IMG/VR virus record: IMGVR_UViG_3300045970_000415
Span: 1-42,755 of that record
DNA length: 42,755 nt
Reading direction: 5' to 3' (one strand)
Origin: a virus
In this document: piece after piece, positions 9,170 through 32,809 of the stretch
Layout of the letters: each line of letters starts with the position of its first letter
Numbering within the stretch: position 1 is the first letter of the stretch
Notes under the pieces: model-generated
Databases searched by the model: none
What the model was told of the DNA's origin: nothing
Seen by the model: the letters and a program-made list of their open reading frames with translations, nothing else
Program-made: the position numbers and the translations under genes

Positions 9170-10834
9170 ATGCACGCCACCCCACCCGCCACCATCCCCG
9201 GTGGCTCTATCGTAGACACCTACCTGCGAGACAGCGGAGGCGAAGGTCAAGACCGCTCAGTCTCACGTCAACTCGAAGCCATCAAAGAATATTGCCTGCG
9301 CCACAACCTCAAACTGCGCCACATCTATAAAGACGCCGCCAAGTCAGGCTGCTCCACTGTCGGGCGTGACTCTTTCGATCGCATGATCGCATCCACTCGC
9401 AGTGAAGCAGATCGTCCCGTGGCCATCCTCCTCTGGAATTACGCCCGCTTCGCGCGTGACCTCGATGACTCCACCTATTACAAAGCCCTGCTCCGCTCGA
9501 AGCGCAACATCATCATCCACTCCCTCACCGATCACATCCCCGAGGGACCCTATGGCCGCTTCGTCGAGATTCTGATCGACATCTCCAACGAAGAGAAACG
9601 CCGCCAAACTTCCATTGATACAAAAGATGGTCTCCGCTCCATCGTTGCCCAGGGCGCAGTGCCAGGCGTTCCACCGCGTGGCTTCAAACGTCAGCCCATC
9701 ATCACCATCAACCCGCGCACTGGCGAAGAGCGAAAGAATCACCGCTGGATTCCCGATCCAAAATATATCAACCGCATCCGCAAGGCATTTCAAATGCGCG
9801 CCGCAGGCTCCTCACTCGCTGAAATTCAAAAAGCCTGCAAACTCTTTACCACCGTCAACTCCTACGCCACCTTCTGGCGCAACCCGCTCTATTATGGCAC
9901 CCTGGTCTATGCGGGCATCACTTTTGAAATATACTGCGAACCCATCATACAAAAATCCCTGTGGGATAAAGTTCAACTTATCCAACAGGGATTTGCTCAA
10001 AGTAAAAATATAAAAACAGGCGACCGCAATCACCCGCGTCGTCAAAATTCCGAATTCATCTTAAGTGGTCTTGCCCATTGCGCCCGCTGCGGATCTCCCC
10101 TCTATGGCCGCACCTCCCATCAAAAATCGGGCTACAAATATCAATCTTATCTCTGCACCCTCGCCTATCGCAAACGCGGAGCCTGCACCAAGGGACGCAT
10201 TCCCAAACCTGCCTTCGAAGCCGCCATCATCAACGCCTTCGCTCGTCATATCCTCGAAAAAAATAATGTGGATGAAATGCACCGCCTCGATGCTGAACGG
10301 CAGGCTGGTCTCGCCTCCGAACAACAGGATCAGCGCCGTGAGGTCCTCATCCGCATCGCCTCCAACAAAAAACAGCTCACCAACATCATCAACGCCATCA
10401 CAGAAAACGGGTCTTCTCCCGCACTGCAAACCCGCCTCAAAGAACTCGAGCTTCAAAAACTCGAGCTTGATCTCGAACTCAGCGAACTCGAACAGAACAT
10501 GCGCGCAGATCTCGCCCCATCTCTCACCCCGGAACAATTTGAAAGCGGCATAAAACGCATCGCCTCCCTCATCCAGGGCAAAGATCCCGCAGAACAAAAG
10601 ACCGCCCTACGTGGTGTCATCGCCCGCATCGATGTTGAACGTCTGGAAAATACCATCAGAGGCACCATCTACTATTACCTCCCCAATGACGATGATATAA
10701 CCGGCCCCAGTAATCAACCTCCTCCGAATGGGGACGATGATGTGCCTACATCCCCTCACCCCTCGGGACCGCCTGTCCGTAGGCACATCATGCAATATCA
10801 TTTTATTGCATCAACAAAAAGACCACCTTCATAG
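9170..10834 (+). CDS. Large serine recombinase (phage integrase type)
   Basis: N-terminal resolvase-like YLRDSGGEGQDRSVSRQLEAI...KDAAKSG...LLWNYARFARD. Recombinase domain, zinc ribbon CARCGSPLYG...YLCTLAYRKRGAC, and a long coiled coil. Confidence 0.9.
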   Translation: MHATPPATIPGGSIVDTYLRDSGGEGQDRSVSRQLEAIKEYCLRHNLKLRHIYKDAAKSGCSTVGRDSFDRMIASTRSEADRPVAILLWNYARFARDLDDSTYYKALLRSKRNIIIHSLTDHIPEGPYGRFVEILIDISNEEKRRQTSIDTKDGLRSIVAQGAVPGVPPRGFKRQPIITINPRTGEERKNHRWIPDPKYINRIRKAFQMRAAGSSLAEIQKACKLFTTVNSYATFWRNPLYYGTLVYAGITFEIYCEPIIQKSLWDKVQLIQQGFAQSKNIKTGDRNHPRRQNSEFILSGLAHCARCGSPLYGRTSHQKSGYKYQSYLCTLAYRKRGACTKGRIPKPAFEAAIINAFARHILEKNNVDEMHRLDAERQAGLASEQQDQRREVLIRIASNKKQLTNIINAITENGSSPALQTRLKELELQKLELDLELSELEQNMRADLAPSLTPEQFESGIKRIASLIQGKDPAEQKTALRGVIARIDVERLENTIRGTIYYYLPNDDDITGPSNQPPPNGDDDVPTSPHPSGPPVRRHIMQYHFIASTKRPPS

Positions 10835-11306: not shown

Positions 11307-11493
11307 ACTGATTCTCCTTCAAAATTCTTATCTCTTCGAATTGTGCCTGAAGCAAATCCGTCAGATCCGCAAGCGCAATTGCAAGCCGCGTGATCTTTGC
11401 CTTCGCTGACAACAGCTCGCCTATTAATTCAAACTGTTCATTCCTGTCCAGTGGCACACCATATTTCTTATGGTTTGTAATGACGGTACTCAT
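11275..11493 (-). CDS. Small coiled-coil protein
   Basis: [44 protein letters not shown]... The ATG at 11493 forms an ATGA overlap with the stop of the upstream GT gene (11490-11492). Confidence 0.5.
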   Translation of the reverse strand: MSTVITNHKKYGVPLDRNEQFELIGELLSAKAKITRLAIALADLTDLLQAQFEEIRILKENQYGRVNDRNKE

Positions 11494-12395
11494 GCACGCA
11501 TTTTCAACCACGCGCTCTTGTCCGCTGGCCACGAAGGGATAGGCGCGAAGCGTTTGATCAACCACTCGAAATCATGGATGCGTCCTTCCCATCTGTCGTT
11601 CAGCCAGTGATCAATTGAAAAACGATTGCCATTGTCACGCTCCGATCTTCCTACTCGCGAATATGTTTGACCTATTACTTCCTTGTATGCGTTTCGATAT
11701 GGTTCGCCCTTCCACAAGTGCGCATACCAGGTCTTCTTATTGACCATCACCTGCCCCCCGCCAAGCCATGCCTTCAATCCTAATTCTTGCGCCTCACCGA
11801 TGAATGAGCCATAACCAGTTTCATCCATCTGAACGATACGCCGCTGAAAGAATTCCTTTGGCATAAACCAGCACGAACCTTGGAACGTCATTGTCTCGTC
11901 AATTAATCTATTAATTCGGCTGATGATGCGCTCGTCCCATGTCCACCCGTGCAGACCAAGTTCATTGCTCTTGCCTTTCATCTTTGCTCGGTACGGCCAG
12001 GACAAATATTCATAATCCACAAAGGCTCGATGCCTTCGCACGCTCCACGTTTCCGCATCGAGTGCGTATCTGCGCGGAATAACGATCCAATCCTTATCGC
12101 AATCGGCTTTCAGCGTTTCATCATAGCCCTCTGCGATCAGGCAGTGCGCGTCGATCTTCATGATGTATTCGCCTTTGGATACTGCGATCCCAGCGTTGAT
12201 GGAGGCCCGCATTCCGCGGCGCTCCCTATGGACAATGATCAAACGCGGGTCATCTGGCAATGCTTCGATCGGCCAATACCCGTCAAGAATAACAATGACT
12301 TCGATCTCGCCCGTTGCTTTTGCCAATAGATCACAGACAGTTTGCTTTAAATAAAGTTCATTTCGTGCAGGGATGATTACAGATACTTTTTTCAT
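11490..12395 (-). CDS. GT-A fold glycosyltransferase (GT2-like, with DxH and Gal/GalNAc-T-like motifs), paralogue of 14695..15615
   Basis: [10 protein letters not shown]...IEVIVILDG...KIDAHC...[33 protein letters not shown] overlap with the repeat-protein stop at 12392-12395. Confidence 0.75.
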
Positions 12396-14695
12396 GGGAA
12401 TAAGTTTATTGAAGATACGTTAACTCCGTTTATTTTGACGATCACAAGCAATCCAGCGCTCGGGCTTGCGGATGGGCTGGTGCTTGGACTAACCGAAGGG
12501 CTTACACTCGGACTCGCCGAAGGGCTCGCGCTTTCCGACACACTCGGAGATAAAGAAGCCGATGGTGACGCAGACTGTGAAGCCGAAGGGCTTACGCTAG
12601 GCGATGCGCTCGTGCTTGCCGACGGACTGATAGATGCAGAGGGTGATACGGAAGGTGAAACACTTTCACTTTTGGAAGGGCTTGCACTGGCTGACGCTGA
12701 TGGGCTAATGGATGCGGAAGGCGAAGCACTCGGAGAAACGCTTGGGCTTTTCGACGGACTTGCGCTTGCTGATGCCGAAGGACTTATAGACGCACTCGGA
12801 CTTACCGAAGGGCTTGCGCTTGCAGATGCTGATGGGCTAATGGATGCGGAAGGTGAAGCACTCGGAGAAACACTTGGGCTTTTCGACGGACTTGCGCTTG
12901 CTGATGCCGAAGGACTTATAGACGCACTCGGACTTACCGAAGGGCTTGCACTGGCTGACGCTGATGGGCTAATGGATGCGGAAGGTGAAGCACTCGGAGA
13001 AACACTTGGGCTTTTCGACGGACTTGCGCTTGCTGATGCCGAAGGACTTATAGACGCACTCGGACTTACCGAAGGGCTTGCGCTGGCTGACGTAGATGGA
13101 CTGATAGACGCAGAGGGTGAGGCACTCGAAGACGCGCTTGGACTTTGAGACGGGCTTGCGCTAGCACTCGCTGACGGAGATATTGATGCTGACGGAGACG
13201 CTGACGGCGACGCTGATTGCGAAGCACTTGGCGACGCTGATGGACTTGCGCTTGCACTTGCTGATGGCGAAGCTGAACCGCCGCCAAATGGATTGAGCGA
13301 AACCAAAAAGGCGTGCTTGGTTGTAGATGTCGCCGAAGCGGTAAAGTTTACGACCCCCGTTGCGCCTGAGCCACTCCAATTGCAGTGCGCGAAAGTCCTG
13401 CTGAACGTGGATATCGAACCACTATCAGAGTCTTCTACCCAATCATTGTCCTGAGTGGCAGGCTTGGTGAACGTTCTTACCGTTGTTGAGTAAACCGCGC
13501 CAAGGGCGATAAGGTTGCGGAGTGTCGCGCCTGTCGTGACCGCCGCCGCCTGAACAGTGGTATTGCTTGTGACGTAATTCGTGTTTGAACTGGCTTCAAT
13601 TGGTGATGTAAGGCTGTAACCGTAACGATAAGTCGCAATGGTTATCGCAATCTTAGTTGTGCCACTCGTTCCCCATGTATAAGTGGCGCCTTCACTCGCC
13701 CCTGCCAGTTTCCAATATATGTGATATTTGTCGGATGTCGATGTTTTACTCTGTAAAAGCGTCCAACCCGTAGGTACTGAGTTGACCGTGAAGCTAGACA
13801 CGTCACGGATACCTACGAATGCAAACATCAAATCGTTTTGCGCGGTGTTTGTCGGTTTATTACACGCCAAAGAAGTCGCCGCGCCATTATCGGCGGCCGC
13901 TGTATTGACCAGAATTGTGTCACTACCTGCGCTTGGAGAGGCAGATGGGGATGCGCTTGGGCTTACTGATGGACTTGCTGACGCACTAGCTGAAGGTGAA
14001 ACCGACGGACTTGCCGACGCCGACGCGCTCGGACTAGCACTACCAACCGCTGGCATCAAAGCGCATTGCCATATCACATAAGATAAATAGGTTGACGTTG
14101 TAATACTTGAAATCCCTGTCGCCCCTGTTGACATTCCTAACTTATCTAAGGTTATGCCAAGTTGTTGTCCAGTTGCGCTTTGAACGTTGCTATACCCATT
14201 ATTGTTGCTTGTATATGTGGTGGTGGTGGGCTGATAATCGTCACCCATCAATAGCAACGCGCACGCGCCAGAAGTAGCGATGGTTATTGATGGTGCGCGG
14301 GCGTTTCCTGCTATCGCCGTCCCTTCTACTAAACCAGTCGCCCTATTTCCCGAAGCTGGCGCAACATCCCAAATATTGGCCGTATCCACGCCTCGGTATT
14401 GGCGGATAACGATTGACCATCTTCCTGAACTCCCTTGCGTAAAATTATAGGTCGCAGGTTCGCTTCCGCCCGCTACCCGCTGGAATATATAAGCGGTAGC
14501 ACTGTCTGGATTTGCCGCGCTGTCAGCAGTCGTGAACGGAGTAGAACCATTATTATCAGTGGAAGTTTGCCCTGCTCCATTGCCATTGATAAACGCAATC
14601 AGAACATCTCCTGATGCTATGGTCAGTCCATGAGTGATGGAAACATTTCCAGACGCTCCGCTCGCCGCCGCCGTTCCGATTAATGATATAGCCAT
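12392..14695 (-). CDS. Mucin-like Ser/Pro/Ala tandem-repeat protein with two paralogous globular domains (candidate glycosylated virion fibre or decoration)
   Basis: 767 aa: globular domain 1, a ~40-aa SPSA linker, globular domain 2, about 280 aa of (S-P-S-A/V/I/K/Q)n, then a 20-aa tail [20 protein letters not shown]. The start overlaps the upstream stop (TAATG at 14695). Confidence 0.8.
12699..13094. repeat. 132-bp tandem repeat, 3 near-identical copies (44-aa units) inside the repeat protein gene
   Basis: Units start at 12699, 12831 and 12963 (gatgggctaatggatgcggaagg...). Copies 2 and 3 are identical for about 119 bp by eye. Shorter degenerate SPSA-coding repeats extend over about 12455-13290 and 13925-14045. 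Confidence 0.85.
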
Positions 14696-15615
14696 TATTT
14701 ACTCCACTCTGGAACAGGAAAAAATTTTTCAATTAACCATTCAAGAGGGTGAATAGCCTTATCCCATTTATTGTTCAGCCATAAGTCTTGACTATACTTC
14801 CGCGCGCGCTCTATGCCAGGGTTCGGATACGGAAATCCAAAGTCACCGCCTTGCGTGCGGAATAGATGGGCATACCAAGTTGATCGGTCAATAATAACTC
14901 TGCCACCTGATAACCACGTCTTACAGGCTACCTCTGTGCCTTGCTGACCCCATGAGCCGTGTCTTTCGTCGCACAGATCCAACTCAAAATATTTATTTCG
15001 TGTCACCATAAAGCAAGAACCTTGCAGACTCATGCTCTCCACAAGATTTCCTTTTTGCTTCTTTTGCAGTTCACCCCAATACTGGAAGTGAAGTTGTTTG
15101 TCAAAACGATATGCTGACGACTTGGGGCTTGGCTTGGCTATCCAAACCACATCCATAGTCGTGGGTAGTCCGCAGTCCAGGCACGGACCAGATACACCTT
15201 GGTATCTCCGATGCCCTTTTTCACATACCCAATCAAAGGCGTGTAAGTTGCGCATGAGTGGTGAGACAGTCCAATCGTCTTGCACGTTCGCCATCAACTT
15301 CACATCGAAGCCTTGGTCAAAACTGCAATGAGCATCCACCTTCATCAAATACTTCGCATCCGATACTCGCGCCGCCTCATTCGTAGCCGCACGTTGCCCG
15401 ATACTCTGTGCGTGATGGATCAATGTCAAACGCGGATGGTCTGGTATAGGTATTTCAGGCCACGCGCCGTCTAGTACTGCTATGACTTCTGTATCGCCTT
15501 CACTGTGCGCAAATATGTCTTCAATCGTTCGATTGAGGAACATTTCATTTCGCGCAGGAATGAGAATACTTAGGTCATACATCTTTGCCAAAATCCGTCT
15601 GTGATTACTTTCCAA
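14695..15615 (-). CDS. GT-A fold glycosyltransferase (GT2-like, with DxH and Gal/GalNAc-T-like motifs)
   Basis: [10 protein letters not shown]...TEVIAVLDG...KVDAHC...[29 protein letters not shown]. The start may be the internal MYDLS (15582). Confidence 0.75.
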
Positions 15616-16412
15616 TTGAAACGCTTGCGCGCTTCGGTCGCGTCTACTGTCTTAGGTGGTGACTTGAATAACCTTATTAAACTTTCTGTAACTATCTTGG
15701 GTGAACCTTCGGGAATGAAGTCAGCAAGGCCATCAAACCACTGCCGGTAGTTCGGGGTGTCGAATACAATCGGTCGGACGCCACAGAATAAAGCTTCAAC
15801 CGCAGGTATTTCGAAACCGTCTTTTCTGCGCAATGCCGACACGAATGTACATTGATTAAATATATCACGCAGGGTTTCGTCGGTGTTCACAGGAAATGAT
15901 GTAACAATTGGATTGGCGTACCCTTTCCCAATGTGCGCAACCACTCCTCCGACTGAGTATGCCGACAAATATACTTCACCAAGGCATTCATTTCGATACG
16001 TGGTTCCATTTGTGCAAACAATATATTTCTTTTCGCGCTTCAAATCAATAAAGACATCTGGGTTAGATGCAAGCGGGGCGTGGTACAGATTGACCAACTT
16101 GAACGGACTGGGGATTTTACTTTTCAAGTCGTAATAGCTCCACACTACCTTCGCGCCACTCCATATGGCTAACCAATCATCGGCGCTTGGGTTTCGACTG
16201 CTCTCCAAGACGTACTGAATGACCGCGTATTTCTTGCCTGCCTTGATAATTTCCTTCGCCTGTTGCGTGACGTGCTGATTGCGCCCGATCACATGCAAAA
16301 TGATCAGATCGGCTTCAGCGGCATCATGCACACGGGTTATATTTTCTGGCAGATTCGCGTCAAGCGCATCAATCACGCGCTGAATGCCATAGCTTTGTAA
16401 GCTGATATCCAT
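15570..16412 (-). CDS. GT-B-like glycosyltransferase (GT1/GT4-like C-terminal motif)
   Basis: RRKDGFEIPAVEALFCGVRPIV resembles the (E/D)x7E region of retaining GT4 enzymes. ATG at 16412 (MDISLQ), with an upstream GTG at 16445 possible. Confidence 0.55.
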   Translation of the reverse strand: MDISLQSYGIQRVIDALDANLPENITRVHDAAEADLIILHVIGRNQHVTQQAKEIIKAGKKYAVIQYVLESSRNPSADDWLAIWSGAKVVWSYYDLKSKIPSPFKLVNLYHAPLASNPDVFIDLKREKKYIVCTNGTTYRNECLGEVYLSAYSVGGVVAHIGKGYANPIVTSFPVNTDETLRDIFNQCTFVSALRRKDGFEIPAVEALFCGVRPIVFDTPNYRQWFDGLADFIPEGSPKIVTESLIRLFKSPPKTVDATEARKRFNWKVITDGFWQRCMT

Positions 16413-16420
16413 GAATATTT

Positions 16421-17050
16421 TCACTTGACCGCTTTCTTCACCCACATAAAGGAACGGTTTCTATCCCGTATCAACCCAGGCGTTTTGGCGCGTGTGCCAA
16501 GCAGAAACCACGGCTTGATCATATAAGCATCCGTGAAGCCGTTGACTACCGATGTGACATGCATATTCTGCGATGGTCTGCGGAGCTTCTTGTAATCATG
16601 CCCAGAAACGATTCCGCCCACACGAACCTTCTTGCTCCAATAATACAGGTCTTGCGCCGCGTGCAGCCAATCATGGTTGCCGTCAATGTACACAAAGTCA
16701 AGGCTTTCATCTGGTATCTGTGCCGCCGCTTCAATGCTCGTCATGTGCAGCACGTGCGTGTTATATCCAGCCAGCCTGCGGAGCGCCTCCGCTTTTGCAT
16801 CTTCCATCCCGCCAATATAGAAATCATCGTAATTCTTCCAGACATCTACAAGGTACAGTGTGACTGTCGGGTTAGCCTTGCAGATAGCCTCGGAATATAT
16901 TCCTTTGAACACGCCAACCTCCGCGCCGATCTTGAATCCAAGTTCTGCGAATAAATTGACGAGTTGAAATCTCCCGTAATTCGGTATCTCGATCGGTGAA
17001 CGCCTGCTCGAAAGATTGAACTTATTCAAAATAAAATCAAGTGTATCCAT
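16421..17050 (-). CDS. Class I SAM-dependent methyltransferase (sugar O-methyltransferase-like)
   Basis: GAEVGVFKGIYS (motif I), FVYIDGNHDW, GGIVSGHDY. Confidence 0.65.
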   Translation of the reverse strand: MDTLDFILNKFNLSSRRSPIEIPNYGRFQLVNLFAELGFKIGAEVGVFKGIYSEAICKANPTVTLYLVDVWKNYDDFYIGGMEDAKAEALRRLAGYNTHVLHMTSIEAAAQIPDESLDFVYIDGNHDWLHAAQDLYYWSKKVRVGGIVSGHDYKKLRRPSQNMHVTSVVNGFTDAYMIKPWFLLGTRAKTPGLIRDRNRSFMWVKKAVK

Positions 17051-17053
17051 TTA

Positions 17054-18430
17054 TTATCCTATCTCAAAGTAATCATTGCTTGGATTGAAACTCAATTCAT
17101 GCGCCGTCACCGCATGTCCTATCAGGCGAATGATCTGCCCAGCCGCCGCCGATGGCGCGCTCTCCTGTATCGCTCCCGCTGTTGTCCCTGCGTATTGAGG
17201 AACGCCAACCGTCATGGCAAATACAGCATCACTTCGAACGCGCCCATTCACCAAAATTGTTGTTGGTTGCCCATCTCCGCTTGCGGCTAAAATGCAAATA
17301 CCCAGTCTGCCTTTTGTGGTCGCTTCCGCGTCTGCATCAACAAGCACCCATTTTGATGATGAATTAAAATAAACAAGATTACCAAAAGACAGTGCCGCGC
17401 CTGCTGTTCCGCTTTCTGTATCTCCAAAAAATTCACCATCTGCCAAACCAGATTTTACAGGCTCAATTCCAGGTATCTTGACATAAGAACAAAAATTATA
17501 TGCGCCGTATTTTATAGTTACATCAAGATCAGAAACTTCTGCAGTTTGAGCATAGAATTTGAATACATATCTATCGGACAAACTGACTGCTTGGTTGTTA
17601 TTTAGAAAATCTAGTCCATTATAAAAATACGCGCCTCCAGTTCCGTTCATATCCAAGCTGACGGCACTGGACGTTCCAACCAGGCTTTCCGAACCGCCTG
17701 AAATGCGTTTGTACATTTTCAAGCTTATCGTTGTTGCAGAGGCGGGAACTCTGGAAGTCATTCCCCAAAATAGAAAATCCCAGATGGCTTTATTTATATG
17801 CCGAGTTCCTAATTGTGGTGTTACCCAACAAAATAATTCAGTCTGCCCATCGGCGCTATTTATCGTAACTGTTTTTGTGGCTGGGCTTGTTGCTGTTGGC
17901 TCAAGCTTTGACATAGTGTAATAAGTGCTAATTCCAGACGGGGTATTAGTCAAATAAAGTGGATCTGCATATGATAGGTAGTTAACTTGAATGCCGCTAT
18001 CCTGAATATGTTTGCCAGTTGCATCTGAATAAGTGACTATATTTCCCGCCACACTTGGAACGGTATCACCCACCACGTCCCCCGTTCCGCCTGTAATGAT
18101 TGTGCCGCCGTTGTCGCCCACTCCTGAAACCACCACGCCATCCACCACAACTGCAAACGTGTACACCACACCATCGCTCGGGATCAATACTCCCAGCGGA
18201 GAGATTATCACTCCGCTGAACACCGCGCTGGTTGGGTCAGACGTCCCTCCTGGCACAGACGGCATGATGATCTCTTTATTCTGCTGGATCACCTGCGTGA
18301 TAAAGTTAGTCGTGTCGCCCGCCCGCATCTTCCTGAACTGGTCCTCCAGCCAGTCCACCCGCGTGAATAAGTTCCCCTTCTTCCCGTTGATTATTTTCTT
18401 ATAAAAATTCTCAAAAGTTTCATCTGGCAT
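17054..18430 (-). CDS. Tail fibre / receptor-binding protein
   Basis: 458 aa at the distal end of the tail module. Gly/Val/Thr-rich beta-type N-terminal half with an IVTYSDATGKHIQDSG fibre-like motif. TAATG overlap at 18430. Confidence 0.6.
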   Translation of the reverse strand: MPDETFENFYKKIINGKKGNLFTRVDWLEDQFRKMRAGDTTNFITQVIQQNKEIIMPSVPGGTSDPTSAVFSGVIISPLGVLIPSDGVVYTFAVVVDGVVVSGVGDNGGTIITGGTGDVVGDTVPSVAGNIVTYSDATGKHIQDSGIQVNYLSYADPLYLTNTPSGISTYYTMSKLEPTATSPATKTVTINSADGQTELFCWVTPQLGTRHINKAIWDFLFWGMTSRVPASATTISLKMYKRISGGSESLVGTSSAVSLDMNGTGGAYFYNGLDFLNNNQAVSLSDRYVFKFYAQTAEVSDLDVTIKYGAYNFCSYVKIPGIEPVKSGLADGEFFGDTESGTAGAALSFGNLVYFNSSSKWVLVDADAEATTKGRLGICILAASGDGQPTTILVNGRVRSDAVFAMTVGVPQYAGTTAGAIQESAPSAAAGQIIRLIGHAVTAHELSFNPSNDYFEIG

Positions 18431-19443: not shown

Positions 19444-21416
19444 TAGATCGTATTCCTTCCGCGCCAACTGGTGACAATGGTTACATCAGATGTGCCAGCA
19501 TCGGACCATGCCAGCGTATTTGCGCCCGCCGAAAACGTCATCCATTCGTCACGCTTCTCGCCATTGAAGGACAACATTCCACGCACCCGCCTGCCGTCTG
19601 CGTTGTATACCTCCTGGTTGGCACAATCAATGGTCAGCGTCAGGCTGGTCTTTGTGATTACACCTTCGAACACTACAGTCTCTGCCGTAGTGTTGTTCTT
19701 GAGCGTTCCGCCAATCGTGTAGTTCTCTTGAGAGATGGCGATGGCCATTATCGTCGGTGGATCTGCAATGGTCAGTGTCACAGCGTTTAACTGTGCATAG
19801 CAAAGCGGTTGAGGTATTTGCCCGCCAGTGACTATAAAGTAAACACGCGGCGGATTGCTGAGAATGGCCTCATTGACAGAGATGGCCTCTACAGTTCCGT
19901 CCGTCAAAGCGGGCTGAGTGATGTTATATATCGAAGTTCCTGTCAAATCGATCTTATCAGTAAGCCAAACACTCACAGGCCATGCGGGGCTGGACGACCA
20001 GGTTGCCTTTTCTCCAGTGGCTTCGAAATTAGAGATACCACCTGCGTGGAAGAACACAAAACCTGCCGTCGTAAACAACTTATTGATATTGATGATGGCT
20101 GACACAACCGCGGGGTTCGCAATCGCGTCTGGAACATATAAAACCTTATTGCCAATCCTGATATATTCGCGTGTTTCAGACCATGGCCAATACGTGTTGT
20201 ACTGCGTAGCCGCGCCTGCCTGCTTGGCTTGCGCTGGCTGGTCGCTATTTCTAATGGTTCCGAACGTGGCGTAGATGAAGTCGCTATTGGTTGAGTCGAC
20301 TTTATCAAAAGCGGGTCCATATGTCGTTGCACTTTTCACCAACGGAGGAGTGGCCGCTGCATTCTTGTACAACAACCATATTTCGTTTTCGATCCAAAAC
20401 GCTTCTGTGCTTATCGTGTGAGACGCGAGGGAACTGCCTTTCGCGCCACGCTCCACCAGCGTAAACGTTGCGCGCTTGGTAGTCGCATTGACTGTATAAG
20501 TGGAATAGGTAAATAATTCATTTTCAATTTGGAGCGTCCCGTTCTCTGGAATAGTAATGGCGGTGTCTGTGTAGGATAAATCTATTGTCGCAGGCTGAGT
20601 GCTGTTGTTCAAAGCAGTTTCAAGCGCAAACGTTGGCTGAACCGAAAAGTTTAGGTTCACCCAAATTTTAGTTGAGGTGCTGTTCATTCCACCACCGCCG
20701 AACCACCTGTCTGCCTCTATCCCGTTGACACTAACTCTCACATCGTCACCAGAGGCCAGCATATCTCCAGCCGTGACAAGCGTTGCAGTATCCAGCCCGC
20801 CGTCTGTAATATCAACAGGAAGCTTCGTCATTCCCCAGCCGCTCGTGTGGATGGCATAAAATGTTTTCTTCTTATATCCCGCTCCCTTCGTGGCGTTCGG
20901 CGTGATCTCAAAGATCGGCAGCGCAGGCACATTCCCCACCGCTGTGATCACGTTCGTATCCGTCCCGCTCGTAATGTTCCAGGTATCCGTGTTCAGATCG
21001 TTCTCGATCCAATACGGAGCGGACAGCGCCAGCGTGATGTTATATAGGTTCTTCATTGCGCCTTCCACCAGCATCGGCGGCGTCACGGGGTAGCCTTCCA
21101 AATACCAATCCTTATTCCCGTTGTCAATATCCAGCCCCACCAGTTTCCGCAATGTGAAATCGTTCGGCATGAACCAGCCGCACAATATATCCCGTTGACT
21201 CTCCAGGTCTGCGTCCGTGCTTCCCAACAACTGCACCTGAAACGTATAGTACGTTCCTGCCAGTGTCTTTCCACTCAGAACAGGGTCGCTCTGTCCCAGG
21301 TCAATGAAATTCGCCGTCGCTGAAGACATCCCATTCCCCACGCCGATCGGTACGCGCGCTTCATAATCGCTGTCGTCCAGGCTGTGCCCGTCCCATGTGC
21401 TGATCGCCATTCTCAT
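19443..21416 (-). CDS. Distal tail / tail-tip structural protein (large)
   Basis: 657 aa immediately after the tape measure, with a TAATG overlap at 21416. Confidence 0.55.
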   Translation of the reverse strand: MRMAISTWDGHSLDDSDYEARVPIGVGNGMSSATANFIDLGQSDPVLSGKTLAGTYYTFQVQLLGSTDADLESQRDILCGWFMPNDFTLRKLVGLDIDNGNKDWYLEGYPVTPPMLVEGAMKNLYNITLALSAPYWIENDLNTDTWNITSGTDTNVITAVGNVPALPIFEITPNATKGAGYKKKTFYAIHTSGWGMTKLPVDITDGGLDTATLVTAGDMLASGDDVRVSVNGIEADRWFGGGGMNSTSTKIWVNLNFSVQPTFALETALNNSTQPATIDLSYTDTAITIPENGTLQIENELFTYSTYTVNATTKRATFTLVERGAKGSSLASHTISTEAFWIENEIWLLYKNAAATPPLVKSATTYGPAFDKVDSTNSDFIYATFGTIRNSDQPAQAKQAGAATQYNTYWPWSETREYIRIGNKVLYVPDAIANPAVVSAIININKLFTTAGFVFFHAGGISNFEATGEKATWSSSPAWPVSVWLTDKIDLTGTSIYNITQPALTDGTVEAISVNEAILSNPPRVYFIVTGGQIPQPLCYAQLNAVTLTIADPPTIMAIAISQENYTIGGTLKNNTTAETVVFEGVITKTSLTLTIDCANQEVYNADGRRVRGMLSFNGEKRDEWMTFSAGANTLAWSDAGTSDVTIVTSWRGRNTI

Positions 21417-23398
21417 TATACGAATCCTTTCAGTGTCTTCTTCGGGTCAGTCTTACCCGAGTAGATCGTGATCTGTGGGTTGTAATAATTCACCGTCCCG
21501 CTGTTCCCCGGCATTCTCCCCCCCTGTGGGATCACCGCGAATGTCTCACCGCTGGTCAGTCCCATCCCATAAGTATCGTTCGGGAATCCGCTTGGCACCG
21601 TCTGCCAGCCATCCGTTCCAGTCGCAAAGCCTGTTCTTCCTTTCGGTTTTGGCTTGGATGCGGGCGTATTTGAAGCGATGGCTGATCCACCCGTCGCAAA
21701 GCCGCTGAAAATTCCTTTCACTGCACCAAACAAACTGCTCGCCGCATTTATCAAAGCGGGAGCTGCTCCCAAAAATCCTTTAACCAAACTATCAATAAAG
21801 CTCTTGCCAACGTCAGACCAGGAAATTCCAGCAAGCCATGATTTCAATCCGGAGATTGCGGCAGAGAATATTGTTTCGATATTCTTCCAGCCTGCTTGCA
21901 GGATTATGCCGAATGCTTTCCAAGTGTTATCCCAAATTCCGCGCAAGGCCACACCGAGCGCATCCCAATCCCCAGAAAATATCGCCTGAAACGCTGAGAA
22001 AATTAAACGTATGTTTGCCAGGCCAAGTTGAAGGTATCCCTTTATTGCGTTAATGGTAGTAAACCAAATCGCAGAGAGTGCGCCTAGTTTCCCCTGTGTC
22101 AATTCTTGAATGAATTGCATTCCACTTTGGATTACAGACGTGATAAAACTCCATGCCGCACTGATCGCAGGCACGAGGGTATTTGTCCAGAAGCTCGACA
22201 ACGCCGTGATTGCCAGCGGAATATTGATCGAAAGCCAGTTCCAAATGTTTTGCAATATAGGCTGAAGCCACGCCCACACTGCAGCGGTCTTTTGCTGAAT
22301 GCCGCCCCAGTTTTGGGTCCATGCAGTATATAAAAGATATGCCGCCAGGCCAATTGCCGCAAAAGTTAATATGACTGGAGCCATGCTAATAATGGTTGAA
22401 ATTGCAAATGCAATAACTGCCGAACCAAGTATCGCCAATATTGCAACAACAACACCCTTGTTATTTTGCAGCCAGGCAAAGGCATCCTTAAATTGCTGAA
22501 TAAAATTCGGAATGTTATTTACAGCCGTGCTTGCCAAATTAGCTATGGATGTAGATAACCTATCAATAAATGCCTGCACTTCAGGCCGATTGATGTAGTC
22601 ACTGAATGTAGTTGCCAGATCTCCTAGAACAGGCAGTAATTTTTTCCCAACACTCTCACGGATATTTCCAAGCTTCACATCTAGGATGGCGAGCTGCCCT
22701 GCAAACGTTTTACCCGCCGCCTCTGCGCTTCCGCCAAATTCAGTGGATAATTCCTTGAGGATTAATATTTGTTTCTCCTCCTTGCTCATCAAAGGAGTAA
22801 ACTTTTTCCTAAGCTCATCAACGTTGACGCCCACCCTGGCCAGAGCGCCAAGGCCAGCGTCAGGATCTTGAAGCGCTTTCCCTAATTGTATGGACGTTGC
22901 CTGCAGCTGTTCAGCGCTGGGAATTGCTCCGCCGTTCATCGCGGTAGCCATGTCTGTTACAGCCTTGGTGGCGCCGGGGAATACATTCTTCCCAATATCG
23001 GTGAACGTCAACAGCATGCTCTGGGCGCTTACAAGCGCCTCATCGTCAATGCCTGTTTTCATGGCCGTTGCATCGGCCAGCGCATTGACTTGAGAAGCTG
23101 TAATCCCCGCAATTCCACTCGTCGATTGCAATACTGAATTTAATTGTGACTGGACTCGTTCGTTGTCAACCGCAGCCTGCACATCAGCACGCAGCTCAGT
23201 AGTAAAAGCGGCCAGACCTACGGCGCCAGCAATAAAGGCGGCTCCCAATACACGGCCACCAATGCCAGCCACCTTGCTTCCAAGTGCCTGCATCTTGCTT
23301 TGAAAACTATCGACAGTGTTCGCTGAACGCTTCATGCCAGATTCGAATTCGCTACTATCAACTACTAATTTTGATGTGATCGTTGCCGCGGTTGTCAT
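21416..23398 (-). CDS. Tail tape measure protein
   Basis: 660 aa, helical Ala/Gln-rich N-terminal half, hydrophobic Trp/Ala/Ile-rich central region. It directly follows the frameshifted chaperone pair. Confidence 0.85.
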   Translation of the reverse strand: MTTAATITSKLVVDSSEFESGMKRSANTVDSFQSKMQALGSKVAGIGGRVLGAAFIAGAVGLAAFTTELRADVQAAVDNERVQSQLNSVLQSTSGIAGITASQVNALADATAMKTGIDDEALVSAQSMLLTFTDIGKNVFPGATKAVTDMATAMNGGAIPSAEQLQATSIQLGKALQDPDAGLGALARVGVNVDELRKKFTPLMSKEEKQILILKELSTEFGGSAEAAGKTFAGQLAILDVKLGNIRESVGKKLLPVLGDLATTFSDYINRPEVQAFIDRLSTSIANLASTAVNNIPNFIQQFKDAFAWLQNNKGVVVAILAILGSAVIAFAISTIISMAPVILTFAAIGLAAYLLYTAWTQNWGGIQQKTAAVWAWLQPILQNIWNWLSINIPLAITALSSFWTNTLVPAISAAWSFITSVIQSGMQFIQELTQGKLGALSAIWFTTINAIKGYLQLGLANIRLIFSAFQAIFSGDWDALGVALRGIWDNTWKAFGIILQAGWKNIETIFSAAISGLKSWLAGISWSDVGKSFIDSLVKGFLGAAPALINAASSLFGAVKGIFSGFATGGSAIASNTPASKPKPKGRTGFATGTDGWQTVPSGFPNDTYGMGLTSGETFAVIPQGGRMPGNSGTVNYYNPQITIYSGKTDPKKTLKGFV

Positions 23399-27010: not shown

Positions 27011-27973
27011 TTATCCGGTCAGAACTGCAAATGGGAAACCAGTGCCGCTGTCCAAACGAGTTACAGGCTTGGGCAGCGCCACGCCAATACGCATCACCGC
27101 GCGCAAGGCAACCATGTCTTGTTGTGCGAGGTTGTAAACGATCGCGCCAGTGCCATCTTGAATCACGGCCTGATCCAAAATCTTGAAGGTCATATCCTGG
27201 CGTGCTGAATAAACCAATTTGTTCCACTGACCGCTCATCAATTTATAAGTTTCATCGACCACACCATTTTCAGGAAAATCAATTGGTGAGCCATCGAGCA
27301 GATATTGGGTGGCTTCCTGCATTGAGTTCTTGAAGATGGGTTTCCCATCGGCATCTCGTACATTGCGAAGCTTGCGCATGAACGAGATTGGTGCAACGCT
27401 TGCAGACACACGGTAGCCCTTGGATTCAACTTTTCCGAACAGGCCAGATGCTTCTGCGTCCGTCTCGCCCAGGATCGCTTCATACAAATCTTGATATGAC
27501 GCGAGGGAAATCAAATTGCCAGCCGCGGTCGCTCCTGCAACCAGGCCTGCCCCGCCCAAATTGGTTGTCCAGCTTGCGGGAATATTTGTTCCATAAAACA
27601 CAGCCGCATCGAGCACACGCCCAAATTCCTCGATCAACGCGTTCTTTACCTCGCCCCAGATGTCATATTTGGCATCAGACAACACAGCTTCAGAGATGGG
27701 CACAATTGCCGCGATTTCTTCCGCGTCAATATATTTGTTCGCCCATTCCATCTTTGTCGTTTGCTTCAGCCCGGTATCGCCATTGACGAAATAGGCGGAA
27801 GCCAACGCCGAAAGAACTGGCATACGAGTTTGATTGGTTGGCATGTTCGCAAGTTTGCGACCATATTTCAGCGTCATGCTGGAGCTATAGACCGATCCAA
27901 GAATTTCGCTTGAAACATTTTCCGGGATTAATGCAGACGCATCGTTACGGGAAATAACACTGTTGTACGGCAT
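27011..27973 (-). CDS. Major capsid protein (HK97-fold type)
   Basis: 320 aa, directly after the scaffold gene, with sequence character typical of capsid subunits. Confidence 0.8.
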   Translation of the reverse strand: MPYNSVISRNDASALIPENVSSEILGSVYSSSMTLKYGRKLANMPTNQTRMPVLSALASAYFVNGDTGLKQTTKMEWANKYIDAEEIAAIVPISEAVLSDAKYDIWGEVKNALIEEFGRVLDAAVFYGTNIPASWTTNLGGAGLVAGATAAGNLISLASYQDLYEAILGETDAEASGLFGKVESKGYRVSASVAPISFMRKLRNVRDADGKPIFKNSMQEATQYLLDGSPIDFPENGVVDETYKLMSGQWNKLVYSARQDMTFKILDQAVIQDGTGAIVYNLAQQDMVALRAVMRIGVALPKPVTRLDSGTGFPFAVLTG

Positions 27974-29571: not shown

Positions 29572-29809
29572 GGCGTCTGTTTTCCTCGAAGAAATCGATC
29601 GCCTCTTCGACGCAAGTAATGATCGTCATCTCCACACAGCCTTTCTCCAGCCGTTGCACTGCATACAGCACATCTGGGTCAGGTGCGCCGAACATTCGGA
29701 AATAATCGCCTGCATATCTCACACCCTCGATCACGATCACATCCCCTGCTTCCCTCTCGATCGAAACAGGCTTCTTCACATCATGCGGCAAAGTTTTTAT
29801 AAAATTCAT
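29564..29809 (-). CDS. Hypothetical protein
   Basis: 81 aa, with an ATGA overlap with the portal stop at 29806-29809. Confidence 0.5.
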   Translation of the reverse strand: MNFIKTLPHDVKKPVSIEREAGDVIVIEGVRYAGDYFRMFGAPDPDVLYAVQRLEKGCVEMTIITCVEEAIDFFEENRRHA

Positions 29810-31200
29810 AATTGCTGCACCTCCTGTTGCGCGCTCTGTTGCGAACTCTGTTGTGCGCTAGTCTCCTGACCTGCGCCGCCTTGAGCATTGAACCGCCTCT
29901 CCGCATTCAACAACGAACTCGCCAGCGACGTCTGCTTCCGGCCGTCCTGCTCTTCCATATCCTTCAGCATCTTGTCGATGTACGCCTGGCTCTTGCCTTC
30001 ATCTCTCAGCACTGTCACCAGCGGCAACCCCGCGTTCACATTCAGCTGTCTTGTCTCTGCTTCCGTCCGCGGCTGGATCGTCTCAGGCTTATCGAAGATC
30101 GGCATCACATCCGCAGGCTGTACAGTCTCACCTGAAGCCTTCAGCATGAACAAAGCCACTTGCTTCCAAACAGGTGCGAACCTGTCCACGCGGTCCTGTG
30201 CCTTCTTATTCAGCGGGGCTTCCATCGCGATCAATGCCTCGCCTGAAAGATTGCTTCCCACCGAAAAGAAATAATGCTTCGGCGTGCGCGTGATACTGCC
30301 CAGCGCCGTGGCCAGGTTGTCGATGCTGTTCAAATAATTCTCCAGCTTCGCCGCCTCAAATTGACCCGTCTGTGTCTGTTGACCAGTTCCATCGCCAGCG
30401 GGCAAGTCCCAGATCTCCTTCGGGGATACTCTCAGCTTGCCTTGCACCTCGGCGTTGCTGATCACATACCTCTGCGGGAAAGCCATGAACTCCGCCGTCA
30501 CCATCATGTCCGTCAATAATTTATTGATTCCATTCTGGATCGGGATCACGTTCTTCAGGTCGCTCTTCACCTTGCGCTGTCCCAGCCGATAATGGAAAAC
30601 GGGCACTTCACCAAATGGGTTTTCAGCAGCCGCTTCTTTCCCTGGCAAAAACGATTTCACATCCGACACATTGCTCGCCTTGTTTTGCGTCTTGTAATAT
30701 TCAAGATGGTCCACATAGTACAGCGTCATGTTCAACCGCTCATCGTCGCTCGTCCACATCTTCGCCGCAAACTTCTTCTTGCGCGGTTCGCTTTGTTCAT
30801 AGAACAAATGGATCAATCGCGGATCGTTGTGATAACCCTGCATCACGCCGTCTTCGTCGGGCCACGCAATGAAATAACCTTCGCCTGCTACCAGCGCCGC
30901 CTCATGTACATCGTCGCTTTCCAGGCTGATCTCGCTCGCCTCCCAAATTTCCTTCCATCGAGTTTGACCGCCGCCGCTCACCTGGATCTCGCGCAGGTTC
31001 ACGCGATCGCGCGCACTGTCCACCACCACCGAACACCAATTCTCCGCAAAGTACGCATCCAGATCCTTGAACACTTCCTTCAAACGGTTCGCGGTATATA
31101 CCAACGGCTGATCACCGTCGTAATAATTGAACAGCATCGTATAAGGAATTTGTTTTGCAGTAATGGTTTTGAATGCGAGTGCCAGATCTTGTATGCTCAT
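29806..31200 (-). CDS. Portal protein (SPP1 gp6-like)
   Basis: 464 aa, immediately downstream of TerL, with a Gln/Ser-rich acidic C-terminus. Confidence 0.8.
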   Translation of the reverse strand: MSIQDLALAFKTITAKQIPYTMLFNYYDGDQPLVYTANRLKEVFKDLDAYFAENWCSVVVDSARDRVNLREIQVSGGGQTRWKEIWEASEISLESDDVHEAALVAGEGYFIAWPDEDGVMQGYHNDPRLIHLFYEQSEPRKKKFAAKMWTSDDERLNMTLYYVDHLEYYKTQNKASNVSDVKSFLPGKEAAAENPFGEVPVFHYRLGQRKVKSDLKNVIPIQNGINKLLTDMMVTAEFMAFPQRYVISNAEVQGKLRVSPKEIWDLPAGDGTGQQTQTGQFEAAKLENYLNSIDNLATALGSITRTPKHYFFSVGSNLSGEALIAMEAPLNKKAQDRVDRFAPVWKQVALFMLKASGETVQPADVMPIFDKPETIQPRTEAETRQLNVNAGLPLVTVLRDEGKSQAYIDKMLKDMEEQDGRKQTSLASSLLNAERRFNAQGGAGQETSAQQSSQQSAQQEVQQL

Positions 31201-31246: not shown

Positions 31247-32809
31247 CTATCCTTGATAACTTCTCACTTCTTTTTGCGGCCTGCGCAGCATCGTCAACAA
31301 CTTGCTATACGCGCCGCTCGCCGCATCCACCTGATCGTCATACTTGCCGCGGTCGAATGCCACACACTCATCAATGAACGCCTCATTCCATGCGCCCTTC
31401 AGCAGAAAGATCATCGCGCCCTGGAACGCACTTTCCATCGGCTCCGAACGTGTCGGTTTATCACCTGACACAGTTTCGAACTTCGCAGAAAATCCAATCA
31501 GCAAACGGTTCGTCGCTTCCGCCGAATCCTTCCCAGCTGAGCCAGGGTCTTGTTGATGCCAGGTCGCAACCTTGCCGTACTTCTCGCGGTCATCCTCGGC
31601 GGTTTTCTTCATCTTCATATCGCGTTCGTACGAACTCCACTGCCCGCGCACAACATCCAGAATATAGAAAAATCCATCCGAACCATAAGCCATCAACACA
31701 CCAGCCGTATAATCGCCATGGGTTGAATTTGCCTTGTCCCACAGCCGCACTATGAACCTGATCGTCACACCCTCGGGTATCATCGTCACGGTCCTGAACC
31801 ACTCACGCCTGTATTTCTGACCGCTCTTCGGAAATGGGCTTTGTTGATAAAGTGCCTCGAAGTCATACACGCCCAGGCTTGCCCTTGTCCCGATCAACCA
31901 ATCTGTCCCGTAGGCGCTCGGCCAAAGCGGTTGTCCAGCCTTGCGTCCCAGCGCATCCTTAAGCGGCAAAAACACACCATCGCGCATTTTCTTTTGTTGC
32001 TCGTCCACATCCACTGGGTATCCATCCAGCGCCAGTGCAGGCAGGGATATTATTTCCCATTGATCCGCCAGCGGGTCCGTCAGCATTCGTTGCATCAATC
32101 TGCCTGAAAAATCGTCAGGGTGCCAGCGTGTGTGAAAAACAACCACCGCCGCGTTCGGGCGCAAACGGGTGCGCGCTGAACTGCGATACCAATCATCCAC
32201 CAGGTCACGCCGTCCCTCGCTCTCTGCCTCTTCCCTGTTTTTGAAAGGATCATCCACGATCAACAAATGCGCAGGCAAACCAGTGATACCGCCGCCCACG
32301 CCCGCCGCCTTCACTCCGCCTCGGTAGGGCCGTGCCAGGTCCCAGCTTTCCGTCGCCCGGCTATCGCTCGAAAGTTCCACAGGATGGATCTTCGCGGACT
32401 TGCTCCCAAATAACGCCTGGTACTCACTCGATAAAACCGTATCGCGGATAAAACGGCTGTGCCTCGTCGCAAGGTCCACACCGTAGGATGTCAAAATAAT
32501 TCGGCTGTCAGGCAGCAATCCCAACAACCACGCTGGAAAGTTTCGGCTCGCCAGCTGGCTCTTCCCATGCTGGGGCGGCATCATGATCATCAAACGTCCA
32601 ATGCCCTTGGCTCCGCCGCTCGCAATATACAAAGCCACCTGCTGCAATTTCGCCGCCAGGAGTTGAATATGTGCGGGCGTCTCATAACGTGGATCAATGT
32701 ACTGGCAGAACGTCAAAAAATTCTGCCGCGCATTCTGACGCAGCGCGCGCTCTTCCTTCGCCTGCCGCGGCGTCATATCCACTTGCGGGTTTATCAACGC
32801 AGGCAACAT
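31247..32809 (-). CDS. terL: Terminase large subunit
   Basis: MMPPQHGKS (Walker A), LLIVDDPFK (Walker B), and a C-terminal nuclease region with FYILDV...DDQVDA. Confidence 0.9.
   Translation of the reverse strand: MLPALINPQVDMTPRQAKEERALRQNARQNFLTFCQYIDPRYETPAHIQLLAAKLQQVALYIASGGAKGIGRLMIMMPPQHGKSQLASRNFPAWLLGLLPDSRIILTSYGVDLATRHSRFIRDTVLSSEYQALFGSKSAKIHPVELSSDSRATESWDLARPYRGGVKAAGVGGGITGLPAHLLIVDDPFKNREEAESEGRRDLVDDWYRSSARTRLRPNAAVVVFHTRWHPDDFSGRLMQRMLTDPLADQWEIISLPALALDGYPVDVDEQQKKMRDGVFLPLKDALGRKAGQPLWPSAYGTDWLIGTRASLGVYDFEALYQQSPFPKSGQKYRREWFRTVTMIPEGVTIRFIVRLWDKANSTHGDYTAGVLMAYGSDGFFYILDVVRGQWSSYERDMKMKKTAEDDREKYGKVATWHQQDPGSAGKDSAEATNRLLIGFSAKFETVSGDKPTRSEPMESAFQGAMIFLLKGAWNEAFIDECVAFDRGKYDDQVDAASGAYSKLLTMLRRPQKEVRSYQG

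Follow-up and report, generated by a model that had tools for sequence, protein, structure and literature searches.

The stretch of DNA analysed here (IMG/VR record IMGVR_UViG_3300045970_000415, a JGI metagenome contig of 42,755 bp, hereafter the window) is the complete genome of a temperate siphovirus-like phage. It encodes two soluble glycosyltransferases (GTs) of the GT-A fold, GT-A#1 and GT-A#2, on either side of a fibre-like protein with serine-rich repeats, REP. Both enzymes resemble the polypeptide N-acetylgalactosaminyltransferases (ppGalNAc-Ts or GalNAc-Ts, family GT27) over the two halves of their catalytic domain, and in other phages their relatives are tightly coupled to proteins with serine-proline-serine (SPS) repeats. 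Judging from these sequence patterns, the operon probably O-glycosylates the serine-rich stalk of REP in the host cytoplasm, which would give a mucin-like stalk on the virion.

Relationship of the two enzymes to GT27

The genes of GT-A#1 and GT-A#2 lie on the minus strand at the positions assigned to them in a preliminary description of the window (Table 1), and their products are paralogues (34% identity, E = 1e-58). The motifs that the description had likened to those of animal ppGalNAc-Ts were all recovered in both proteins and in the same relative positions. These are IPARNE (residues 8-13 of GT-A#1 and 19-24 of GT-A#2), (I/V)LDG (residues 36-39 and 47-50), a DxH motif within KIDAHC of GT-A#1 (D82/H84) and KVDAHC of GT-A#2 (D94/H96), and a long block closing with TWYAHL(W/F)(K/R), which contains a C-terminal histidine within WYAHLWK (H226) and WYAHLFR (H250), respectively. 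Two family alignments, A1 with 39 diverse GT-A#1-family sequences and A2 with 24 GT-A#2-family sequences, show no variation at the Asp and His of DAHC or at the His of YAHL. In GalNAc-T1 the Mn2+ ligands are D209, H211 and H344 (PMC4202792), and the alignments put D82/H84/H226 and D94/H96/H250 on the DxH (fLDAHCe) and the GHVFR histidine of that enzyme. Both proteins would be metal-dependent GT-A enzymes in which Mn2+ is held by D-x-H and the C-terminal His.

In Pfam, PF00535 is the only family detected, in the N-terminal half of each protein (63 bits for GT-A#1 and 35.6 bits for GT-A#2, with a gathering cut-off of 23.3 bits); the same family covers the N-terminal half of ppGalNAc-Ts. Single-sequence phmmer searches of the PDB already connected GT-A#2 with ppGalNAc-T7, -T10, -T1 and -T2 through its C-terminal half (E = 2.7e-6 for T7 to 1e-4), and GT-A#1 with ppGalNAc-T1 over residues 53-234 (E = 1e-3). 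With profile A2 the top 14 PDB matches are all ppGalNAc-Ts (best E = 1.8e-11), the two halves being aligned as two matched stretches. Profile A1 finds ppGalNAc-Ts at E = 5e-9 to 4e-5 in alignments across positions 4-232; two bacterial GT2 structures, 3bcv and 5hea, score numerically better, but these and the other GT2 matches cover the N-terminal half only (~90-100 residues). No GT7 beta4-galactosyltransferase appears among the PDB profile matches, so the C-terminal similarity is specific to GT27.

The AlphaFold2 model of GT-A#1 (predicted local distance difference test, pLDDT, 92.4; predicted template modelling score, pTM, 0.91) points in the same direction. In a Foldseek search of the PDB its top 50 matches are all GT27 enzymes from mouse, human, Drosophila and Toxoplasma (best E = 3e-15, TM 0.65-0.69), and it superposes on closed forms of GalNAc-T2 with a root-mean-square deviation of 3.4-3.5 A over ~285 columns, at an identity of 14-20% to the GT27 fold matches. 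GT27 is hence the closest solved family to both proteins by profile, and to GT-A#1 by predicted structure, and the sole one that matches both halves of the catalytic domain in these searches (by fold for GT-A#1). The resemblance goes beyond chance, and the homology to GT27 that had been proposed from motifs alone is solid; the result named in advance as speaking against it, a lack of any significant link to GT27, did not occur.

The two proteins are nevertheless GT27-like catalytic domains rather than canonical GT27 enzymes, because they have no lectin domain and no anchor, and share only part of the WGGENxE motif. The absence of a lectin domain, noted earlier, is borne out by Pfam, which yields PF00535 only, and by the ends of the proteins at 301 and 306 residues. 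We found no N-terminal hydrophobic segment or membrane anchor in either protein; the first beta strand starts at residue 4 in GT-A#1 and at about residue 14 of the GT-A#2 ORF (open reading frame). As for the Gal/GalNAc-T block, the claimed match is present in its spacing and in W-x-x-G-G, which both paralogues keep, and is only partial in WGGENxE, of which each retains some positions. GT-A#2 contains in addition an insert at residues 127-149 (FDWVC-x3-H-RRYQG-x-SGPC-x2-CG) without counterpart in GT-A#1 or in GT27 enzymes. Three of its cysteines (C131, C145 and C148) are at least 90% conserved in GT-A#2-type proteins and H135 is present in the window protein; the insert resembles a zinc knuckle set within the GT-A domain.

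The serine-rich neighbour

The mucin-like neighbour that the preliminary description placed beside the enzymes is real. REP contains 209 serines (27% of 767 residues) and 55 SPS triplets, and consists of head domain 1 (residues 1-214), SPS tract 1, head domain 2 (residues 259-470), SPS tract 2 and a short C-terminal tail. The stop and start codons of GT-A#2 and REP overlap in TAATG and those of REP and GT-A#1 in ATGA, and GT-A#2, REP and GT-A#1 are therefore translationally coupled. A genome-wide scan identified REP as the only Ser-rich repeat protein of this phage; the runner-up in Ser plus Thr is the 458-residue fibre-like protein, which reaches 43% in a 30-residue window and has no SPS. Within the repeats, Pro stands at +1, -1 or +3 relative to the serines. 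Animal GalNAc-Ts prefer a Pro-containing context of that kind, and by analogy a similar preference could apply to the REP repeats. The repeats also match the serine-aspartate (SD) repeat region of ClfA with E = 1e-12, far below the cut-off, although this similarity is one of composition.

A weak homology links the two head domains to each other (E = 2e-5). Head domain 1 is modelled by AlphaFold2 as an all-beta domain with a pLDDT of 93.9; its fold gave no significant PDB match by which it could be named (best E = 0.04). Tract 2 contains a tandem repeat of 132 nt in 3.7 copies that are 92% identical, a sign that a unit of 44 residues has expanded recently. Repeats of this kind are likely to interrupt metagenome assemblies, in line with the database homologues of the head domain, which are mostly fragments of ~230 residues.

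Co-occurrence of enzymes and SPS-repeat proteins

The enzyme family is large: a search of the metagenome protein database gave 2,611 matches, and 547 were confirmed in IMG/VR. For comparison of gene neighbourhoods we used 77 loci from contigs of genomes or metagenome-assembled genomes (MAGs), 80 IMG/VR loci with the enzymes and 70 IMG/VR loci with the REP head domain (L160-L229). SPS-repeat ORFs are present in 60 of the 80 enzyme-bearing IMG/VR loci, and in 42 of 64 such an ORF lies within 2.5 kb after the GT-A#2-type gene. Among the 31 GT-A#2-type genes of the genome and MAG loci that have at least 1.5 kb of downstream DNA, 15 are followed within the same distance by an SPS ORF of 260-1,750 residues on the same strand. 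The head-domain loci served as a control: the enzyme family and SPS ORFs are both missing from 69 of them, and the only one with SPS repeats carries the entire cassette. In the combined samples SPS ORFs thus occur in 61 of 81 phage loci with the enzymes and in none of 69 without them (Fisher p = 7e-25, a value not corrected for phage phylogeny).

Moreover, the repeats are not tied to one type of protein. When 88 SPS proteins are grouped by their non-repeat parts, 39 unrelated clusters result, with LamG lectin-like, REP-type and other heads, which implies that the repeats travel with the enzymes and not with one protein family. They seem to be a portable module found wherever the enzyme pair is present, as would be expected of an acceptor tag and its modifying enzymes. 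Across hundreds of phage contigs the enzyme pair and SPS-repeat proteins are thus found together in a conserved adjacent arrangement. This distribution gives strong comparative support to the Ser-rich neighbour as the probable acceptor of the pair.

Several observations weigh against a peptide acceptor for the window enzymes. A GT27-like fold is in itself no proof of such an acceptor, and the bacterial proteins annotated as ppGalNAc-T-like include TagN, an enzyme of teichoic acid (PMC11032452). The WGGENxE position reads F-I-G-E-A-Q-E in GT-A#1, where both Glu residues (E201 and E204) are kept and the Trp is lost, and W-G-Q-Q-G-T-E in GT-A#2 (W222 to E228), which retains Trp and Gly but has Gln in place of the first Glu. 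The co-occurrence counts take no account of the shared ancestry of the phages, and no SPS ORF exists in the available DNA of about one quarter of the viral and one half of the MAG enzyme loci, some of which have other Ser/Thr-rich proteins. Finally, the window does not contain the FFCEHD domain that accompanies GT-A#2 in most related phages (see below), and its pathway may therefore differ from theirs.

In an alternative explanation the enzymes act on a non-protein acceptor of the host, such as wall teichoic acid, lipopolysaccharide or a capsular polymer, and serve lysogenic conversion or superinfection exclusion, with the SPS tracts as unglycosylated flexible linkers. The phage is temperate, with a serine integrase, and the cassette occupies a typical moron position between tail genes and integrase; TagN and the two best PDB matches of the GT-A#1 profile by E-value, which are bacterial polysaccharide or glycan GT2 enzymes matched in the N-terminal half, fit this idea as well. 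We consider it unlikely, since the operon shows no membrane segments, flippase, polymerase or polyprenyl-phosphate transferase, translational coupling ties the GT-A genes to REP, and the SPS repeats are confined to enzyme loci. Their occurrence on 39 unrelated scaffolds would also be hard to explain if enzymes and repeats were functionally unconnected.

A protein acceptor other than REP would be provided by the capsid or the tail tube. Phage-encoded glycosylation of such virion proteins is established in the mycobacteriophages Che8, Corndog and Myrna, according to Freeman et al. 2023 as cited in PMC12363180, and an SPS linkage counted without phylogenetic correction could reflect the common descent of one phage lineage. 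This seems improbable to us: no other protein of the window phage has a Ser/Thr-rich tract (for the runner-up see above), the enzymes are unrelated to gp108-110 of Che8 (hhalign probability at most 17%), and the adjacency of the GT-A#2-type and SPS genes is kept while the globular parts of the SPS proteins change.

Division of labour and proposed mechanism

For O-glycosylation of REP the roles of the individual enzymes are less evident. The preliminary description suggested that both paralogues initiate glycans on peptides, either in different acceptor contexts or one after the other. However, related loci contain up to five GT-A paralogues together with other GT domains, which suggests that some copies extend the glycan. 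A stricter version assigns peptide O-glycosylation to the GT-A#2 type alone and makes the GT-A#1 type a sugar-to-sugar extender on a GT27-like scaffold. The GT-A#2 type is the more conserved (58-77% identity in the IMG/VR loci vs 37-51% for the GT-A#1 type in the MAG loci), lies directly upstream of the SPS gene and alone has the Cys/His insert, while the GT-A#1 type reaches up to five paralogues per locus, a pattern that would suit extending enzymes with one linkage each. On the other hand, the Glu of the WGGE position is kept in GT-A#1 and not in GT-A#2, GT-A#1 is also translationally coupled to REP in the window, and both types occur in nearly all loci, so that comparative data cannot separate their roles. 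We lean against this strict assignment, but regard it as a serious possibility.

From the gene content we infer a peptide acceptor, an order of action, a type of donor, a sugar methylation and a virion location for the pathway. Before virion assembly, at a late stage of infection and within the cytoplasm of the host, at least one GT-A would move a sugar from a nucleotide sugar to Ser hydroxyls of the (SPSASx)n tracts of REP. GT-A#2 would be the preferred candidate for initiation, as the better conserved of the two types and the one next to the acceptor gene, in spite of the Glu that GT-A#1 keeps and GT-A#2 lacks. The other GT-A and the GT-B-like protein might then lengthen the glycan, and the Methyltransf_24 enzyme might methylate its sugars and so cap it. 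The outcome would be a mucin-like bottle brush, a stiff stalk that resists proteases and from which the all-beta heads of REP are displayed on the virion; that dense glycosylation stiffens and protects a long stalk is assumed by analogy with mucins, serine-rich-repeat (SRR) adhesins and SD-repeat proteins.

A broader generalisation is plausible, but we hold it only tentatively. Phages of uncultured bacteria, many of them binned with Patescibacteria (the candidate phyla radiation, CPR), may use this large family of prokaryotic and phage homologues of the animal mucin-initiating enzymes to build mucin-like virion stalks, with dense O-glycosylation and methyl caps, from (SPSxSx)n tracts that are attached to dozens of unrelated proteins of the fibre, lectin and beta-helix kinds.

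Related cassettes

The closest relative of the window cassette is found in the phage contig L078, whose GT-A#1-type protein is 69% identical to GT-A#1. The order of genes in L078 is tail genes, a fibre protein, GT-A#1-type, methyltransferase, GT-B-like, a separate FFCEHD-domain protein, GT-A#2-type and an SPS-repeat protein of 722 residues, the last with a Laminin_G_3 (LamG) head and a C-terminal tail as in REP. In the IMG/VR loci the canonical order is a small SPS-tailed protein (in some loci), GT-A#1, methyltransferase, GT-A#2 fused to the FFCEHD domain, and one or more giant SPS proteins. At least two GT-A paralogues are present in 65 of the 77 genome and MAG loci. Methyltransferase homologues accompany the GT-A pair in 64 of the 77 MAG and 62 of the 80 viral loci, often in several copies, and a GT-B-like orthologue is present in L078, in 10 of 77 MAG loci and in 8 of 80 viral loci.

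In 74 of the 80 IMG/VR loci the GT-A#2-type gene is fused to, or neighboured by, the FFCEHD domain, which has ~240 residues and contains the motifs KGI(V/I)YYTD and FFCEHD..YHPSHF; as the C-terminal half of GT-A#2-type proteins it was noted within the set L004-L159. The window lacks the domain, and sequence searches of Pfam and the PDB gave no match to it. One of its copies, in L028, carries an intein-like insertion directly before EHD, and this position suggests that EHD is an active site. We had considered the C-terminal extension of ~270 residues in the GT-A#2-type proteins of relatives as a lectin domain, and rejected this because it proved to be the FFCEHD...YHPSHF domain, which is sometimes a separate gene. 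It does not correspond to the GT-B-like protein of the window either, as L078 has both as separate genes.

In L086, L113, L131, L133 and L136, proteins of 245-390 residues with a globular N-terminus and a C-terminal SPS tract ending in SPSPSFP(F/D)(V) are encoded upstream of the GT-A#1-type genes; they have no PHROG match and no equivalent in the window. In MAG loci without SPS proteins (L009, L030, L059 and L064), the GT-A#2-type genes are followed by tandem Ser/Thr-rich paralogues of ~370 residues (M.D.HKNFAYSTVATAPSPA...PFNATIWP...) or by proteins of 550-650 residues beginning with MATRLKTIEY..., and both of these may be alternative glycoprotein substrates.

The taxonomic labels of the loci must be treated with care. 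L005 (JBAZJW010000006.1, from a 'Candidatus Paceibacterota' MAG) and L087 (IMGVR_UViG_3300029288_000026) are both 44,615 bp long and share an identical SPS ORF of 964 residues. L005 thus seems to be a phage contig that was binned into a MAG, hence the taxonomy of the MAGs, which is mostly Patescibacteria, is no basis for inferring hosts. Many 'genome' matches in Patescibacteria are probably phage contigs, possibly of phages that infect CPR hosts.

SPS-repeat genes are also prone to errors of annotation. The antisense strand of SPS-repeat DNA yields long spurious ORFs with GLADGL.../DADGE... repeats, one of which is seen in the window, and in L078 the JGI gene caller put the gene of the SPS protein on the wrong strand (Table 1). 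Spurious antisense ORFs and wrong-strand calls of this kind make it likely that SPS-repeat proteins are under-annotated in databases.

Genome organisation

Besides the structural genes and the integrase of Table 1, the window phage encodes a primase. The cassette follows the tail genes, all on the minus strand, in the order methyltransferase, GT-B-like, GT-A#2, REP and GT-A#1. The 458-residue fibre-like protein in front of it comes after the tape-measure and distal tail genes, and its C-terminal part resembles a protein of 349 residues at the equivalent position of L078. The region has no more promoter-like or terminator-like matches than shuffled sequence does. The program-made ORF of GT-A#2 opens at TTG 15615, whereas ATG 15582 fits the N-termini of its relatives and would give an overlap of 13 nt with the end of the GT-B-like gene. 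The true start is probably ATG 15582, and the region first outlined for the enzymes would then end ~33 nt too far.

The functions of the two remaining cassette proteins can be judged from their context. The Methyltransf_24 protein falls in phrog_2675, which PHROG labels as 'DNA methyltransferase'; its location in the proposed glycosylation operon and the presence of up to five copies in related cassettes favour sugar O-methylation over DNA methylation. The GT-B-like protein, for which a PDB sequence search gave no match, is a probable glycan-extending enzyme of the operon.

Table 1. Positions of the genes and sequence features discussed in the text (window coordinates unless L078 is named)
Feature	Positions	Strand	Remarks
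Large terminase (TerL)	31247-32809
Portal	29806-31200
Major capsid protein	27011-27973
Tape measure	21416-23398
458-aa fibre-like protein	17054-18430	-	closes the tail module, just upstream of the proposed glycosylation operon; context only
209-aa class I S-adenosylmethionine (SAM) methyltransferase (Methyltransf_24)	16421-17050	-	PF13578 E = 7e-14
291-aa GT-B-like protein (weak)	15570-16445	-	Glycos_transf_1 E = 1.3e-3, under the Pfam cut-off; PHROG glycosyltransferase families E = 4e-4
GT-A#2, soluble, GT27-like	14695-15615	-	ORF of 306 aa; likely start ATG 15582 (295 aa); PF00535 E = 1e-8
KVDAHC of GT-A#2	15325-15336		D94/H96
WYAH250LF of GT-A#2	14860-14877		H250
REP, 767-aa fibre-like repeat protein	12392-14695	-	proposed acceptor
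REP head domain 1	14054-14695		all-beta model
REP SPS tract 1	13922-14053	-	aa 215-258 (44 residues): 45% Ser, 25% Ala, 18% Pro
REP SPS tract 2	12431-13285	-	aa 471-755 (~285 residues, including the start of the C-terminal tail): 48% Ser, 19% Ala, 17% Pro
132-nt tandem repeat in tract 2	12675-13162
Spurious antisense ORF	12435-13148	+	opposite the SPS-repeat DNA
GT-A#1, soluble, 301 aa, GT27-like	11490-12395	-	PF00535 E = 4e-17 on aa 5-143
KIDAHC of GT-A#1	12141-12152		D82/H84
G-E201-A-Q-E204 of GT-A#1	11784-11798		part of the WGGENxE position
WYAH226LW of GT-A#1	11712-11729		H226
Serine integrase	9170-10834
L078, separate FFCEHD-domain gene	12355-13074
L078, spurious antisense ORF at the SPS-protein gene	15071-15754	-	called on the wrong strand

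Novelty and implications

Pfam, NCBIfam and PHROG hold no family specific to GT-A#1, GT-A#2 or REP; NCBIfam gives nothing above its cut-offs, and PHROG has no family for these three. A megablast search with positions 11-20 kb of the window found no match among 50,697 phage records, and tblastn with GT-A#1 against the same records gave weak partial matches, mostly to the N-terminal third, and no full-length relative, so that annotation could not be transferred from any cultured phage. Our literature searches for GT27-like phage enzymes or SPS-repeat phage glycoproteins returned nothing relevant, in a body of literature that was incomplete and hence no proof of novelty. To our knowledge, O-glycosylation of the mucin type that begins with GT27 enzymes is considered a trait of eukaryotes (animals and apicomplexans), and self-glycosylation of phages has been shown so far only in mycobacteriophages, with unrelated enzymes. 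Phage self-glycosylation and the glycosylation of bacterial Ser-rich repeats are thus already known; new here are the enzyme family (GT27-like GT-A), the architecture of the acceptor and the very wide distribution in uncultured phages.

If the proposed function is true, these cassettes would represent a second independent invention, or the ancestral source, of mucin-type O-glycosylation outside eukaryotes, and would supply an outgroup from prokaryotes for studies of how ppGalNAc-Ts evolved and how they work. They would also point to a widespread phage strategy of glycan-shielded fibres, with a bearing on host recognition, on resistance to proteases and antibodies and on adhesion to mucus or biofilms, and would offer a compact and portable toolkit of enzymes and repeat tags for making cytoplasmic mucin-like polymers in bacteria. 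In addition, they would flag a systematic annotation problem, in that SPS-repeat genes are called on the wrong strand or break assemblies.

Comparison with known systems

Both GT-As share the nucleotide-binding N-terminal half with generic bacterial GT2 enzymes (PF00535). The solved GT2 structures align at residues ~3-100 only, however, and the phage proteins differ from them in having DxH instead of DxD and a GT27-like C-terminal half.

The proposed system resembles the SRR adhesins (Fap1, GspB and PsrP, with GtfA/GtfB) and the staphylococcal SD-repeat proteins (ClfA and Sdr, with SdgA/SdgB) in its combination of a Ser-rich stalk, a binding domain and co-encoded dedicated enzymes, and the glycosylation is cytoplasmic in those systems too. 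The structure 5hea, second-best PDB match of the GT-A#1 profile, is GalT1/dGT1 of the Fap1 pathway. Initiation of SRR and SD glycans is, in contrast, carried out by enzymes of the GT-B fold (GT4), whereas the candidates here are GT-A and the only GT-B-like gene is a weak one. The repeat is SPSASx instead of SASASAST or SD, and export in the known systems depends on accessory Sec or sortase, neither of which is present here (we found no Sec genes in the 42.7-kb window genome).

The mycobacteriophages Che8 (gp108-110), Corndog and Myrna also possess glycosyltransferase cassettes, which are believed or shown to O-glycosylate their own structural proteins in the host cytoplasm (Freeman et al. 2023, cited in PMC12363180). 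Membership of the window enzymes in the Che8 type was considered and rejected, as hhalign of profile A1 against gp110, gp109 and gp108 gave 0.2%, 0.3% and 17%, and the likeness is limited to the generic N-terminal half of GT-A. The mycobacteriophage targets are short C-terminal extensions of capsid or tail-tube subunits, while the targets proposed here are SPS tracts of 40 to 285 residues (elsewhere more than 1000) in fibre-like proteins.

Compared with GT27 enzymes (mouse GalNAc-T1, 1xhb; human GalNAc-T2, 4d0t; T. gondii GalNAc-T3, 6s22), the phage proteins have no ricin-type (CBM13) lectin domain, signal anchor or stem, and would accordingly be cytoplasmic rather than Golgi-lumenal. They are also set apart by an identity of 14-20%, by the partly conserved WGGENxE, by the Cys/His insert of GT-A#2 and by being encoded by phages of uncultured bacteria. 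Yet they have in common with GT27 a GT-A catalytic domain that matches over both halves, the DxH metal motif, a His as third metal ligand within a segment of the type (G/A)H-hydrophobic-aromatic-basic, and a W/F-x-G...E...W-x-x-G-G block of equal spacing. The Ser/Pro-rich tandem repeats that are known substrates of GT27 have their presumed counterpart in the SPS tracts of the phage stalks.

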